NCBI RefSeq assembly: GCF_035084215.1 | Contig: NC_090349.1 | Span: forward strand, 8,680,001-8,744,000 | DNA: 64,000 nucleotides | Direction: 5' to 3' | DNA from: Heptranchias perlo | Lineage: Eukaryota | Shown: piece by piece, positions 18,626-25,621 of the stretch | Position numbering within the stretch: the stretch's first letter is position 1 | How the letters are laid out: every line of letters starts with the position of its first letter | Notes under the pieces: model-generated | The model's input: the letters and a program-made list of their open reading frames with translations, nothing else | The model's database searches: none | What the model was told of the DNA's origin: nothing | Position numbers and translations under genes: made by a program

Positions 18626-19091
18626 TAATAATAGCAACTTTTCCAAGCTTTACATCATTGAGCTATTACAGCAGCTTAGAGAACTAAGCCTGATCTTGCT
18701 GGGAAAAAAGATTAAGGTAGAAACATGAAACAAGTTCAAATCATGATGCAGTGTCGAGAGCTAATGTGTTTCCAACGAAGGAGCGGGGTTTATAGCAAGG
18801 CTATCCAGGCGCTAAATGGAACAGTGGACCGCTTATTGCGTGTAGCATCCTCCTCATTCTTTGAAAGTTAATTTCTATATATACAAGTAGGAATCATTAT
18901 CCCACAGAGGATAGAAACTCAACAGGGATAATGCTCCTTTAAGTAAATTTATACCCTGGGCGTCCACTGATCGTCCCCCATTTTGCTGTATCACAGCCTC
19001 AATCTGACGCAGCCCTGCAGTTCTCTGTCTTGGCAAGTCAGTTGTAAACAATTTTACAACACCAAGTTATAGTCCAGCAATTTTATTTTAA

Positions 19092-19132
19092 ATTCACAAG
19101 CTTTCGGAGATTTTCTCCTTCCTCAGGTAAAT
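19092..19132 (-). ncRNA. Minimal type I hammerhead ribozyme in the inverted pLTR
   Basis: Exact reverse complement of 20143-20183. Confidence 0.85.
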
Positions 19133-20142
19133 GTTTCAAGATCTCCTTGAAGCCTACGCATTTATACATATTGAATAATACATGGTGTTTACAGACTGCC
19201 TCTGCAACTGCCCGTTGCCAAGGCAATCACCGTGTTCAGACAGAGAGGTGTCATCTGCAGAACCCCCGAATACACATTCAACAAAAAAACAAACAGGGAA
19301 AAAAAACAGAGAAAAAAAAGAGAAAAAAAACAGAGAGAGAGGCAGAAACATCTGGAAGGCAGAGAGAGCCAGCAAATGACCCATTATATTAAAAACAGAT
19401 AACATTTGTTCGCTGGTGGGGTAACGTGTAGCGTCACATGAACCTCTGCAAGACATGCCAGATCATCGACACAGATACCACCATCACACGAGATGACACC
19501 ACCCACCAGGTGCATGGTTCATACTCCTGTGACTCGGCCAACGTTGTCTACCTCATACGTTGCAGGAAAGGATGCCCCAGAGCATGGTACATTGGCGAGA
19601 CCATGCAGACGCTGCGACAACGGATGAACGGACACCGCGCAACAATCGCCAAACAGGAGGGTTCCCTCCCAGTCGGGGAACACTTCAGCAGTCATGGACA
19701 TTCATCCACCGACCTTCGGGTAAGCGTACTCCAAGGCGGCCTTCGAGACACACGACAACGCAAAATCGTCGAGCAGAAATTGATAGCCAAGTTCCGCACC
19801 CATGAGGACGGCCTCAACCGGGACCTTGGGTTCATGTCACGCTACACGTTACCCCACCAGCGAACAAATGTTATCTGTTTTTAATATAATGGGTCATTTG
19901 CTGGCTCTCTCTGCCTTCCAGATGTTTCTGCCTCTCTCTCTGTTTTTTTTTTCTCTTTTTTTTCTCTGTTTTTTTTCCCTGTTTGTTTTTTTGTTGAATG
20001 TGTATTCGGGGGTTCTGCAGATGACACCTCTCTGTCTGAACACGGTGATTGCCTTGGCAACGGGCAGTTGCAGAGGCAGTCTGTAAACACCATGTATTAT
20101 TCAATATGTATAAATGCGTAGGCTTCAAGGAGATCTTGAAAC

Positions 20143-20183
20143 ATTTACCTGAGGAAGGAGAAAATCTCCGAAAGCTTGTGAAT
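20143..20183 (+). ncRNA. Minimal type I hammerhead ribozyme in the upstream pLTR
   Basis: Stem I ATTTAC/GTGAAT; core CTGAGGA(+A); stem II GGAGA-AAA-TCTCC; GAAA; palindromic AAGCTT in place of stem III. Confidence 0.87.
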
Positions 20184-20269
20184 TTAAAATAAAATTGCTG
20201 GACTATAACTTGGTGTTGTAAAATTGTTTACAATTGTCAACCCCAGTCCATCACCGGCATCTCCACATC

Positions 20270-22978
20270 ATGACTACCATCGACACCACAAACTGCCGGC
20301 TCACAGTGGAAAGGATATCCAAGAAGATCGCGCATTTAGACACAGACATCAAGTTTTTACAGAGCTGCAAGAAAGCAGACAAGATCCTGAAAGGACTCCA
20401 GATCACGAACCCACTCAAGTCCACATACAACTCGGATTACGCTGAGAGACTCTGCCGCCGTACCTCTCGCACACTCCGCAACCATCTCATACACCAACTC
20501 TACAGCAGACGCCACAACCTCGAAACCAAGATAGAGTCCATACTCTCAACCTGTACTCAGGACACAGCAGACCAGCTACGTTATACCGCCAAACAGACGA
20601 GGCAACGGAACTACGCTGCCTACATGAAAACCAAGAGCAGGAAGCTTGAGAAACTCGGCATCACCACCAGCAACGACCAAGCTTCCCCTGGTACCACGGT
20701 TGCAACCACAGGGAAGTCTATTGTCAATCTATCCGACCACACCCTTCAACCAGACGAAATCGAAGTTCTCAGCCGAGGGCTCAATTTCTGCCCCACTACC
20801 AAAATGGACCCCACTAGTCTCGCGGCGGACACAGAGGAATTCATCAGGAGAATGAGGCTCCGGGAATTCTACCACAAACCCCAAGATTTCAGCAGCGAAC
20901 CCAATGAGACAATCGACGATCCGGAACAGCAGACAGAGGGATCCGCGGTACAGCAACCGAAGAGGAAAGAGTCAAACTGGACTCCTCCGGAGGGTCGCTG
21001 CCCTCAGCTGGACATGTATGCTCAAGCTGTCAGGAAATGCGTCAATGCCAGATTCATCAGCCGCACTCAGAAGACAGTCCAGAATGTCACCCGAGCACAA
21101 CGCAACGCCATCAACGCTCTCAAGACCAACCGCAACATCGTCATCAAACCAGCGGACAAAGGAGGAGCCATAGTCATACAGAACAGAACAGACTATTGCA
21201 AAGAAGCATACCGACAACTGGACAACCAGGAACACTACAGACGGTTACCCGCAGATCCGACCAAAGAACACACCCACCAGCTCAACAAACTGATCAAGAC
21301 CTTCGATCCAGACCTTCAAAGCATCCTACGCATTCTCATCCCACGTAATCCCCGCGTGGGAGACTTCTACTGCCTCCCAAAGATACACAAAGCCAACACA
21401 CCCGGACGTCCCATCGTATCAGGCAACGGAACCCTGTGTGAGAACCTCTCTGGATACATCGAGGGCATCCTGAAACCCATCGTACAGGGAACCCCCAGCT
21501 TCTGTCGCGACACTACAGACTTCCTACAAAAACTCAGTACCCACGGACCAGTTGAACCAGGAACACTTCTCACCACGATGGACGTCTCGGCACTATACAC
21601 CAGTATCCCCCACGATGACGGCATCGCTGCGACAGCATCAATACTCAACACCAACAACAGCCAATCTCCGGAAGCCATCCTACAACTCATCCGCTTCATC
21701 CTGGATCACAATGTCTTCACCTTCGATAACCAGTTCTTTACCCAAACACACGGAACAGCCATGGGGACCAAATTCGCACCCCAATACGCCAACATTTTCA
21801 TGCACAAGTTCGAGCAGGACTTCTTCACTGCACAAGACCTCCAACCAACACTATACACCAGATACATCGACGACATTTTCTTTCTATGGACCCACGGCAA
21901 GGAATCACTAAAGAGACTACACGATAACATCAACAAGTTCCATCCCACCATCAAGCTCACCATGGACTACTCCTCAGAATCAGTTTCTTTCTTGGACACA
22001 CGAATCTCCATCAAAGACGGGCACCTCAGCACCTCACTCTACCGCAAGCCCACGGACAACCTCACGATGCTCCACTTTTCCAGCTTCCACCCTAACCACG
22101 TCAAAGAGGCCATCCCCTATGGACAGGCCCTGCGAATACACAGGGTCTGCTCAGACGAGGAGGAACGCGATGGACACCTACAGACGCTGAAAGACGCCCT
22201 AGTAAGAACGGGATATGACGCTCGACTCATCGATCGACAGTTCCGACGGGCCACAGCAAAAAATCGCATAGACCTCCTCAGGAGACTAACACGGGACGCA
22301 ACCAACAGAGTACCCTTTGTCGTCCAGTACTTCCCCGGAGCGGAGAAACTACGCCATGTTCTCCGCAGCCTTCAACATGTCATCAATGAGGACAAACACC
22401 TCGCTATGGCCATCCCCACACCTCCACTACTCGCCTTTAAACAGCCACCCAACCTCAAACAGACCATCGTTCGCAGCAAACTACCCAGCTTTCAAGAGAA
22501 CAGCGTCCACGACGCCACACAACCCTGCCACGGTAACCTCTGCAAGACATGCCAGATCATCGACACAGATACCACCATCACACGAGATGACACCACCCAC
22601 CAGGTGCATGGTTCATACTCCTGTGACTCGGCCAACGTTGTCTACCTCATACGTTGCAGGAAAGGATGCCCCAGAGCATGGTACATTGGCGAGACCATGC
22701 AGACGCTGCGACAACGGATGAACGGACACCGCGCAACAATCGCCAAACAGGAGGGTTCCCTCCCAGTCGGGGAACACTTCAGCAGTCATGGACATTCATC
22801 CACCGACCTTCGGGTAAGCGTACTCCAAGGCGGCCTTCGAGACACACGACAACGCAAAATCGTCGAGCAGAAATTGATAGCCAAGTTCCGCACCCATGAG
22901 GACGGCCTCAACCGGGACCTTGGGTTCATGTCACGCTACACGTTACCCCACCAGCGAACAAATGTTATCTGTTTTTAA
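20270..22978 (+). CDS. PLE polyprotein, 902 aa: reverse transcriptase, Cys-rich linker, GIY-YIG endonuclease
   Basis: Uninterrupted ORF from the first ATG at 20270. Motifs: IKPADKGGA, LPKIHK, GRPIVS, MDVSALYTSIP, GTAMGTKFAP, YIDD, FLD, CxxxxCxxC linker, VVYLIRC...WYIGET, HF. Confidence 0.96.
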   Translation: MTTIDTTNCRLTVERISKKIAHLDTDIKFLQSCKKADKILKGLQITNPLKSTYNSDYAERLCRRTSRTLRNHLIHQLYSRRHNLETKIESILSTCTQDTADQLRYTAKQTRQRNYAAYMKTKSRKLEKLGITTSNDQASPGTTVATTGKSIVNLSDHTLQPDEIEVLSRGLNFCPTTKMDPTSLAADTEEFIRRMRLREFYHKPQDFSSEPNETIDDPEQQTEGSAVQQPKRKESNWTPPEGRCPQLDMYAQAVRKCVNARFISRTQKTVQNVTRAQRNAINALKTNRNIVIKPADKGGAIVIQNRTDYCKEAYRQLDNQEHYRRLPADPTKEHTHQLNKLIKTFDPDLQSILRILIPRNPRVGDFYCLPKIHKANTPGRPIVSGNGTLCENLSGYIEGILKPIVQGTPSFCRDTTDFLQKLSTHGPVEPGTLLTTMDVSALYTSIPHDDGIAATASILNTNNSQSPEAILQLIRFILDHNVFTFDNQFFTQTHGTAMGTKFAPQYANIFMHKFEQDFFTAQDLQPTLYTRYIDDIFFLWTHGKESLKRLHDNINKFHPTIKLTMDYSSESVSFLDTRISIKDGHLSTSLYRKPTDNLTMLHFSSFHPNHVKEAIPYGQALRIHRVCSDEEERDGHLQTLKDALVRTGYDARLIDRQFRRATAKNRIDLLRRLTRDATNRVPFVVQYFPGAEKLRHVLRSLQHVINEDKHLAMAIPTPPLLAFKQPPNLKQTIVRSKLPSFQENSVHDATQPCHGNLCKTCQIIDTDTTITRDDTTHQVHGSYSCDSANVVYLIRCRKGCPRAWYIGETMQTLRQRMNGHRATIAKQEGSLPVGEHFSSHGHSSTDLRVSVLQGGLRDTRQRKIVEQKLIAKFRTHEDGLNRDLGFMSRYTLPHQRTNVICF

Positions 22979-23235
22979 TATAATGGGTCATTTGCTGGCT
23001 CTCTCTGCCTTCCAGATGTTTCTGCCTCTCTCTCTGTTTTTTTTTCTCTTTTTTTTCTCTGTTTTTTTTCCCTGTTTGTTTTTTTGTTGAATGTGTATTC
23101 GGGGGTTCTGCAGATGACACCTCTCTGTCTGAACACGGTGATTGCCTTGGCAACGGGCAGTTGCAGAGGCAGTCTGTAAACACCATGTATTATTCAATAT
23201 GTATAAATGCGTAGGCTTCAAGGAGATCTTGAAAC

Positions 23236-23276
23236 ATTTACCTGAGGAAGGAGAAAATCTCCGAAAGCTTGTGAAT
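23236..23276 (+). ncRNA. Minimal type I hammerhead ribozyme in the downstream pLTR
   Basis: Identical to 20143-20183. Confidence 0.87.
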
Positions 23277-24371
23277 TTAAAATAAAATTGCTGGACTATA
23301 ACTTGGTGTTGTAAAATTGTTTACAATTGTCAACCCCAGTCCATCACCGGCATCTCCACATCTTGGCAAGTCAGCAGTGAGATTTAAGGCAGTAGCAAGA
23401 GTGCTGAAACATTATAGTAATAACAGTGGTACAAAAATCTGCTAAGTAAAACATGGCTCCAAGCTACTGCAGATCAGACAGAGAGAAGAGAGGTTGGTCT
23501 GGCCAGGAAAGAGCTTTGTTAGGTGGAGGTTGAACTTCTTTCCAACACTTTACCTACAACAAATAATCTACCACTATCCATTGTTCATTTAACTTCCACG
23601 CACGAATGGAAAGTACACCAAATTTGTACTGAGCTTCTGCCAAGCCAATTTGGAGCACTATATTGCCAGAGGGTTGTTGTTAAGACGATACTTAGAACAA
23701 GCACATAAAGAGCTCCAGGTCACGGTCCTGATGGTAAACCTTCACCCATTGTCCCAGAAAATGGCGCTGTGTGTCGAATGGATTGTAACCTTTCCTTGCG
23801 TTTCCTGCCCTGCCAAAAAATGACGTTATCACTGTGCAGGGTCAAAGCAACTGTATTGAGTTTTCAACCCAGCTGGTCCAGCAACTCAGTCGCACTGAAA
23901 ACTCTCCACTGAGGCGATAATGCCCTTGAGTGTATCAATTAACATGTAGCTTGCAAAAATGTATTTATTGTTAAAAGCCAAAATTTTGTTATTCATTGAC
24001 ACAAGAGCCTGTTGTGCTTAGTGCAAAATAATAAAGGATCCCCCTTTCTTAAGGCCTACAAGAAGTTACCTAAATTTATAGATTTACACTTTGATATATG
24101 GCTAATAGCCCATTTCTATACTGCAAGAGTAATTTCCTGTCCTGCAGCTGTTGCACCAAATTTATGCTGCAGGGTGGATTTAGTAACAAGTATGCATGTA
24201 CAAGTCAGTCCGCGTGCAAATGCTCATAGATGCAACTTCATCAAAACTAGCTGCAAAACTTCCCCGATGTTGGGGAAGGATGCTATGGGTCAGTAATATT
24301 ACGAAGCACATTGGAGGCTTCCACGGATTCAGCTTACCTACAGCCAAAATAAAATGCCAGACCCAATGGCT

Positions 24372-25621
24372 TATGACAAGGTCCTGAACATTTACCTGAC
24401 GAAGGAGGAAGCCTCCGAAAGCTTGTGAATTTAAAATAAAATTGCTGGACTATAACTTGGTGTTGTAAAATTGTTTACAAAGGTCCCACATGGCAGACTG
24501 GTCAAAAAAGTACAAGTCCATGGGATCCAAGGGAAAGTGGCAAGTTGGCTCCAAAATTGGCTCAGTGGCAGGAAAGGGTAATAGTCGGCGGGTGTTTTTG
24601 TGACTGGAAGGATGTTTCCAGTGGGATTCCGCAGGGCTCAGTACTAGGTCCCTTGCTTTTTGTGATATACATTAATGATTTGGACTTAAATGTAGGGGGC
24701 ATAATTAAGAAGTTTGCAGATGATACAAAAATTAGCCATGTGGTTGATAGTGAGGAGGAAAGCTGTAGACTGCAGGGAGATATCAATGAACTGGTCAGGT
24801 GGGCAGAAAAGTGGCAAATGGAATTCAAACAAGAGAAATGTGAGGTAATGCATTTGGGGAGGGCAAACAAGGCAAGGGAATACACAATAAATGGAAGGAT
24901 ACTGAGAGGTGTAGAGGAAGTGAGAGACCTTGGAGAGCATGTCCACCGATCCCTGAAGGCAGCAGGACAGGTAGATAAAATGGTTAAGAAGGCATATGGA
25001 ACACTTTCCTTTATTAGCACGGGCAGGTTATGCTGGAACTGTATAAAACACTAGTTAGGCCACAGCTTGAGTACTGCGTACAATTCTGGTCACCACATTA
25101 CAGGAAGGATGTAATTGCACTAGAGAGGGTACAGAGGAGATTTACGAGGAAGATGCCAGGACTGGAGAATTTTAGCTATGAGGAAAGATTGGATAGGCTG
25201 GTATTGTTTTCTTTGGAACAGAGGAGGCTGAAGGGTGATTTCATTGAGGTGTACAAAATTATGAGTGGCCTGGATAGAATGGATAGGAAGGGCCTATTTC
25301 CCTTAGCAGAGAGGTCAATAACCAGGGGGCATAGATTTAAAATGATTGGTAGAAGGATTAGAGGGGAGTTAAGGAAAACATTTTTCACCCAGAGGGTGGT
25401 GGGGGTCTGGAACTCACTGCCTGAAAGGATGGTAGAGGCAGAAACCTTCAACTCATTTAAAAAGTACCTGGATGTGCACCTGAAGTGCCATAACCTACAT
25501 GGCTATGCACCAAGTGCTAGAAAGTGGGATTAGGCTGGGTGGTTCATTTTCGGCCAGTGCGGACATAATGGGCCGAATGGCCTCCTTCTGTGCCATAAAT
25601 TTTCTATGATTCTATGATTCA
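24372..25621 (+). mobile_element. CR1 LINE, RT C-terminus to 3' end, interrupted near its 5' end by the solo hammerhead insertion
   Basis: GIPQGSVLGPLLFVIYINDL, KFADDTK and LVRPQLEYCVQFWSP peptides; (TTCTATGA)n tail. Confidence 0.95.
24385..24479 (+). mobile_element. 95-bp solo PLE terminus carrying a complete hammerhead (24390-24430)
   Basis: TSD AAGGTCC (24378-24384; 24480-24486). CTGACGA-A-GGAGG-AAG-CCTCC-GAAAGCTT-GTGAAT; the downstream part is identical to the pLTR through TTTACAA. Confidence 0.9.

Follow-up and report, generated by a model that had tools for sequence, protein, structure and literature searches.

EN+ Penelope-like elements (PLEs) are the closest described relatives of the insertions studied here. 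According to the accessible text of PMC3846280 and PMC8557442, their 5′-truncated insertions carry a TSD, the end of a pLTR and an optional tail of 30–40 bp at one end, the one-sided tail being a known PLE feature; head-to-head arms, TATA/Inr-like motifs in the pLTR and 5′ microhomology are also described. All of these recur in our copies. However, the 5′ ends described below are non-random, about half of them lying at TATA+30–34 and moving with the TATA box; a class of this kind does not appear in the accessible text of either source. Metazoan PLEs possess minimal hammerhead ribozymes with a bulged base before stem II and a palindromic remnant of helix III (PMC4209133, in the sections available), and the hammerhead at our locus has both. 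The same source attributes thousands of single hammerhead motifs to truncated PLEs and proposes cleavage and circularisation as the route to the template, whereas insertions in our data rarely begin at the cut.

The anole Poseidon element PAc provides a biochemical reference. As reported in the available part of PMC11167929, the tail lies between two internal RT start sites, the protein works mainly on unprocessed, uncleaved RNA and depends on RNA sequence beyond the RT start on its downstream side, and a dimer nicking both strands is predicted. The bracketing start sites and the uncleaved template have counterparts here. The differences are that PAc was studied in vitro, that the available text describes no 5′-end class, and that the elements analyzed here carry a Cys-rich, Neptune-like RT-EN linker. 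Non-LTR retrozymes (PMC7229834 and bioRxiv 10.64898/2026.07.22.740005, as far as their accessible text goes) resemble our insert in being small, non-coding, pLTR-related and equipped with a type I hammerhead. Unlike the insert, a lone piece with a TSD on either side and the sequence of a coding element, they are described as tandem units of 150–450 bp with at least two hammerheads, expressed as circles. We considered assigning the insert to this group and rejected it, as the locus holds a single unit with TSD and no tandem repeat.

The locus lies in a window of 64,000 nucleotides, the whole stretch of DNA analyzed (Table 1). The initial annotation proposed a 95-bp insertion in a CR1 element with the TSD AAGGTCC, and this is confirmed: two copies of AAGGTCC enclose exactly 95 bp. 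The insert splits the DKV-PH codons of the host CR1, about 10 bp inside the CR1 5′ end. Other CR1 copies (e.g., L110, L154, L200, L290, L335) have the site intact, with AAGGTCC present once, demonstrating that the TSD is real. Because TCC is common to the TSD and the element, the 5′ end of the insert is ambiguous over 24382–24385, that is, 10–13 nt upstream of the hammerhead core. Sequence comparison finds in it neither a TATA box nor the downstream ORF-side RNA.

Table 1. Features of the insert, its host and the neighbouring full PLE (window coordinates).
Feature	Position	Strand	Basis or remark
Full PLE, other subfamily (W)	19029..23374	+	13-bp TSD 19029-41/23362-74; pLTR-ORF-pLTR with tail
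TATAAAT box, 5′ pLTR	20109..20115	+	39 nt upstream of hammerhead core; predicted start 20139; 3′ pLTR copy 23202
918-codon open frame	20222..22978	+	RT (PF00078), Cys-rich linker, weak GIY-YIG
Host CR1-type LINE, 5′-truncated	24367..25620 (approximate limits)	+	RT match, DKV codons
Left TSD AAGGTCC	24378..24384	+	last 3 bases TCC also match PLE (5′ microhomology)
Short PLE copy, 95 bp	24385..24479	+	matches pLTR end of coding sister subfamily; without TATA box, tail or ORF
Start positions of 49/100 sister (S) copies	24387..24391	+	TATA+30 to +34; putative transcription start
Minimal type I hammerhead	24390..24430	+	predicted fold; architecture as in PMC4209133 (available sections)
Cut-to-proximal-3′-end stretch, 55 nt	24425..24479	+	putative tail-less RT start site, after PMC11167929 (available part)
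Right TSD AAGGTCC	24480..24486	+	sequence

A full PLE ends 1.0 kb upstream of the insert, in agreement with the distance of about 1 kb noted initially. It begins with an inverted tail-less arm (19042 to ~19435) and contains hammerheads at ~20143 and ~23236. Its open frame encodes RT with a C-terminal GIY-YIG domain, the latter matched weakly (E 3e-4; 21.3 bits against a cut-off of 22.6). The insert qualifies as a copy of an EN+ Penelope-like element: it belongs to a family coding for RT and GIY-YIG, consists of pLTR sequence with a minimal hammerhead, ends at one of two 3′ sites that bracket the tail, and has a TSD. A Cys-rich RT-EN linker serves as the Neptune-clade criterion, taken from the accessible text of PMC8557442, and on their sequences the window PLE and the parent subfamily of the insert likely belong to this clade. 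The window PLE also appears very young, with its open 918-codon frame, its 13-bp TSD and pLTR repeats that are 100% identical over 300-nt blocks.

The hammerhead of the insert consists of stem I (24390–95/24425–30), the core CUGAcGA (24396–24402) followed by a bulged A, stem II (24404–08/24412–16) with a 3-nt loop, GAAA (24417–20) and the palindromic AAGCUU. Cleavage is predicted after position 24424 (24424/24425), and the insert spans this cut. Both stems form in the predicted fold of the 95-mer, which has an MFE of −18.7 kcal/mol (z −2.1; 9 of 200 shuffles were equally stable). An Rfam search of the window returned nothing at the gathering threshold. In sequence and modelled structure, the insert has the conserved core and both stems expected of an active hammerhead.

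The differences from the hammerhead of the window's full element listed in the initial annotation are real: N7 is changed from G to C, the closing pair of stem II from A-U to G-C, and the loop from AAA to AAG. The pair swap was put forward as evidence of selection on the RNA fold, and this reading is not supported. The swapped pair merely closes the 3-nt loop of stem II, and exact genome-wide matches number 8,967 for A-U, at least 10,636 for G-C, 4,815 for G.U and 6,950 for A.C at this pair, counts that are not strictly comparable, as the exact patterns were of unequal length. A successful subfamily therefore tolerates an A.C mismatch at the very same pair, and the swap is no proof of selection. 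Covarying PLE hammerhead families have already been published (PMC4209133, available sections). Within our data, recurrent variants occur in 0 of 14 core columns versus 12 of 27 other hammerhead columns (p=0.003; 62 of 90 3′-anchored copies in register, the remaining 28 having been excluded for truncation or a shifted register, and some stem I "variants" being flank). This contrast is weakened by the downstream columns, where 0 of 16 have a recurrent variant in the same 62 copies; most stem changes among these copies are G.U wobbles. The catalytic core thus seems to be spared across the family, which gives better, though limited, support for the fold than the pair swap does. The A.C group itself (L325–L354) offers no clean fourth test of the TATA relationship described below, its loci being a mixture with the TATA box 35, 36 or 41 nt away.

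Genome matches were counted with exact sequence patterns. The variant hammerhead of the insert has 10,636 matches. Stem I is that of the insert in 1,347 of them (subfamily S) and a different one in 4,983 (subfamily T). The hammerhead type of the window's full element (subfamily W) has 8,967, and a pattern anchored downstream has 62,115. The sister subfamily postulated from the single insert thus exists, as S. In 8 of the 8 longer loci inspected, the S hammerhead sits on PLE coding sequence (RT/GIY-YIG); at L138, 587 of 594 protein residues (99%) are identical to the window ORF. The insert matches two S copies (L062 and L110) over its whole length, and its 49-nt module downstream of the hammerhead is the same in 36 of 37 long and 61 of 63 other S copies. 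Within this module, short copies show no diagnostic variants. Genome-wide, 22 matches apparently start 13 nt upstream of the core: 8 of these are genuine ends, 1 has its end at a more distant position upstream, and the other 13 are long copies carrying a substitution. None of the 22 shares the flank of the insert, so its 5′ junction is unique and it has left no daughter copies. Given this junction and the identity of hammerhead and module with coding S copies, the insert is, as judged by sequence comparison, a young daughterless piece of a coding subfamily. Its attribution to the PLE protein in the initial annotation stands, the insert having been made by PLE machinery.

These comparisons also bear on the idea that the insert represents a discrete retrozyme-like mini-element, a non-autonomous family of its own that would be transcribed separately and moved by the PLE protein. 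The genome does contain many TSD-flanked solo copies of 90–135 bp with a sharp 5′ end, and non-LTR retrozymes are reported to be pLTR-derived (bioRxiv 10.64898/2026.07.22.740005, accessible text). However, the hammerhead sits in coding copies, short and long copies share the 3′ module without diagnostic variants in the 49 nt compared, there is no tandem repeat and no TATA box inside, and the junction is unique. Furthermore, tailed and tail-less short copies coexist, which is impossible from a tail-less template, and the downstream RNA needed by the anole protein (PMC11167929, available part) is missing from short copies. The minimal unit suggested in the initial annotation is therefore largely refuted, and we consider it very improbable. 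A SINE-like lineage of its own was rejected likewise, as neither diagnostic variants nor a shared junction were found in the 49-nt module and the 5′ junction.

A sharp pattern emerged for the 5′ ends of the class. Among the first 100 S places, mostly from one contig (C1) and with head-to-head arms that are not independent, 49 copies end 4–8 nt upstream of the hammerhead core, 14 at 9–99 nt and 37 beyond. The density of ends is thus about 9.8% per nt at 4–8 nt and 0.3% per nt at 9–99 nt, an approximately 30-fold excess. Genome-wide, apparent starts number 271 at 8 nt, with 29 out of a checked 30 proving real, versus 22 at 13 nt (8 real). The same cluster appears in the 3′-anchored sample, in which copies with a false stop at 192/196 nt, in a T-rich tract, were classed simply as long. 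The distinction drawn at the outset between sharp and random 5′ ends is hence settled in favour of sharply shared ones.

If all short copies were random 5′ truncations, the peak would have to be an artefact of anchoring or end-calling. The scattered ends of the 37 S copies that run beyond 100 nt suit such truncation, and the insert itself fits a microhomology-assisted one. Against it stand the excess per nucleotide over upstream positions, the recurrence of the cluster in the 3′-anchored sample and the low number of ends near the predicted cut (968 matches against 62,115 anchored copies). For the class this explanation is refuted, and we regard it as having hardly any chance of being correct.

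The position of the peak differs between subfamilies, and it does so in step with the TATA box. TATAAA precedes the core by 38 nt in S (36 of 37 long copies), by 45 nt in T (26/26) and by 39 nt in W (11/11). In T, 42 of 101 copies end at 12–19 nt, with modes at 15–16, and 18 end at 4–9 nt, 16 of the latter being head-to-head. Ends at 4–9 versus 12–19 nt are distributed 49:7 in S and 18:42 in T (Fisher p=1.8e-10), and among solo copies 12:1 and 2:12, respectively (p=6.9e-5). Counted from the first T of TATA, the modal end is +30 for S, +29/30 for T and +30/35 for W, the last being weak (n=29). The T peak is 7 nt further up than the S peak, exactly as is the T TATA box, indicating that the ends follow TATA+30 and not the ribozyme. 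The shared end had been expected to be a ribozyme-defined boundary of a mini-element; instead, it moves with the TATA box. An optimal TATA-to-start spacing of 30–31 is described in PMC1779604 (available text), where motifs downstream of −28 are generally nonfunctional. In its simplest reading, the peak likely represents the transcription start of the PLE mRNA.

A different explanation is that the ribozyme fold, or its complex with protein, sets the ends, with a 5′ exonuclease stalling or RT being released at the edge of stem I and the TATA spacing being incidental. The peaks of S and W straddle the 5′ edge of stem I, and T keeps a minor peak near it, the 18 of 101 copies ending at 4–9 nt, which counts against a TATA-set start. 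Weak extra pairing is also possible in T, whose positions 9–16 pair with the 3′ side at a predicted probability of 0.0–0.3. However, the main T peak lies 7 nt further up, matching the TATA shift, stem I is not extended when T is folded under constraint, and the stronger stem II hairpin (−7.1 kcal/mol, versus −1.5 to −3.4 kcal/mol for the upstream hairpins) gives no comparable pile-up of ends. We therefore hold fold-set ends to be unlikely and retain the transcription start as the preferred reading of the peak. Stalling of RT at an upstream hairpin is unlikely too. We also rejected the use of stem I as a 3′ splice site, for which D. virilis offers a precedent: an AG is missing ahead of the peak, and an upstream exon common to the copies was not seen. 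We looked for a copied cap G and found no sign of it, no S copy among 100 ending at 9 nt. The internal promoter of Drosophila Penelope is described as TATA-less (PMC2377424, available text), which speaks against a TATA-set start. We found no description of TATA-tracking 5′ ends in the open-access literature covered (titles, abstract beginnings and the text of the cited papers).

Predicted RNA folds vary with the start chosen. With the upstream pLTR attached (L062, L256), S and W are predicted to adopt a non-hammerhead fold and T a hammerhead. RNA beginning at the peak is predicted to form the hammerhead, as T does with or without the upstream pLTR; S, T and W are inconsistent in this respect, and these folds were given no weight in the interpretation.

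Ends at the ribozyme cut itself are scarce. The pattern yielding the 968 matches covers ends within 16 nt around the predicted cut and is estimated to catch about 45% of them, corresponding to roughly 0.2% of ends per nt. No peak was found at the cut, and ends spread flatly over the 16 positions: a script placed the start at the cut in 1 of 30 loci, and visual inspection in 8 of 100 listed rows. This distribution bears on templates, not on catalysis. Cleaved RNA would accordingly be a rare template at most, in agreement with unprocessed RNA being the main substrate of the anole element (PMC11167929, available part). The insert spans the cut, from which the initial annotation had deduced uncleaved or re-ligated RNA as the template; the missing cut-site peak supports uncleaved RNA.

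The 3′ ends are bimodal, lying at about +56 and about +94 nt from the cut and bracketing the tail in the manner of the paired RT initiation sites known from the anole PLE (PMC11167929, available part). In S, 47 of 100 are proximal, 52 distal and 1 other; in T, 50 are proximal, 47 distal and 4 other. The insert uses the proximal site. Among head-to-head pairs (L061–L284), 52 of 55 combine one proximal, tail-less arm with one distal, tailed arm; in the remaining 3 one arm falls just outside the bins, and pairs with two like arms are absent (0/55). The window's full PLE obeys the same rule. Such a strict one-tail rule suggests that one complex primes both strands, using the RT start sites as a pair. 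Separately, inverted junctions form a minor cluster 19 nt upstream at the palindrome AGGAGCTCCT (L085, L101, L136, L050), likely through fold-back.

Retroviruses and LTR elements produce minus-strand strong-stop DNA, a short cDNA reaching from an internal priming site to the 5′ end of the RNA. In the mechanism that we propose for PLEs, the mRNA likely starts about 30 nt downstream of the TATA box in the pLTR and immediately before the hammerhead, which would place an internal RT start site a mere 95 or 130 nt or so from the RNA 5′ end. Priming at the 5′-most internal site would then run off this end and yield a strong-stop-like cDNA, by analogy with the retroviral product, consisting of the hammerhead and spacer. 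Roughly half of the copies in the subfamily could have arisen in this way, whereas a longer copy would require a downstream site in a read-through or tandem transcript. In contrast to retroviral strong-stop DNA, the PLE product would be primed by nicked target DNA and integrated directly, with no tRNA primer and no strand transfer. The insert was likely made by target-primed reverse transcription from the tail-less internal site on uncleaved RNA, and it is likely immobile. The run-off product presumably cannot move again, as it lacks the TATA box and the downstream RNA needed by the anole protein. We consider it probable that short copies are dead-end cDNAs extending from the mRNA start to an internal RT site, the insert stemming from the pLTR end of a coding PLE.

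At class level, 5′ ends follow TATA+30/31 across subfamilies. The insert itself starts at TATA+25 to +28, at the TCC microhomology, 2–5 nt upstream of the peak and not inside it, and no S copy ends at 9–11 nt (0 of 100 sampled). Microhomology-assisted truncation of a read-through template has, in our estimate, slightly better than an even chance of explaining this copy; an early transcription start is a substantial possibility falling somewhat short of even.

We lean, with moderate confidence, towards a broader model for these vertebrate PLE subfamilies, in which about half of the insertions would be strong-stop-like cDNAs that map the pLTR start to the base, ribozyme cleavage would set no template ends, and each head-to-head insertion would reflect one complex priming both nicked strands, with one proximal and one tail site. 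If this is correct, lone hammerheads in their thousands, inverted arms and the presence of a tail at just one end of PLEs would all come down to one mechanism. Should short copies be run-offs, genome sequence alone would give PLE start sites, the lone hammerheads of fish and amphibian genomes would be by-products rather than mini-elements, and cleavage would not define templates in vivo. The rule of one tailed and one tail-less arm translates directly into a prediction for PAc in vitro. Taken by itself, the insert is ordinary; the TATA-tracking class signal offers a testable handle on PLE transposition.

Two further observations were made. Head-to-tail tandem PLE units with a spacing of ~3,081 bp occur at L164 (G000:C1:4459500-4469400), L149 and L162 and are candidate templates for long copies. 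Elsewhere in the window, a tandem repeat of ~24 nt at 785–1295 has open frames on both strands.
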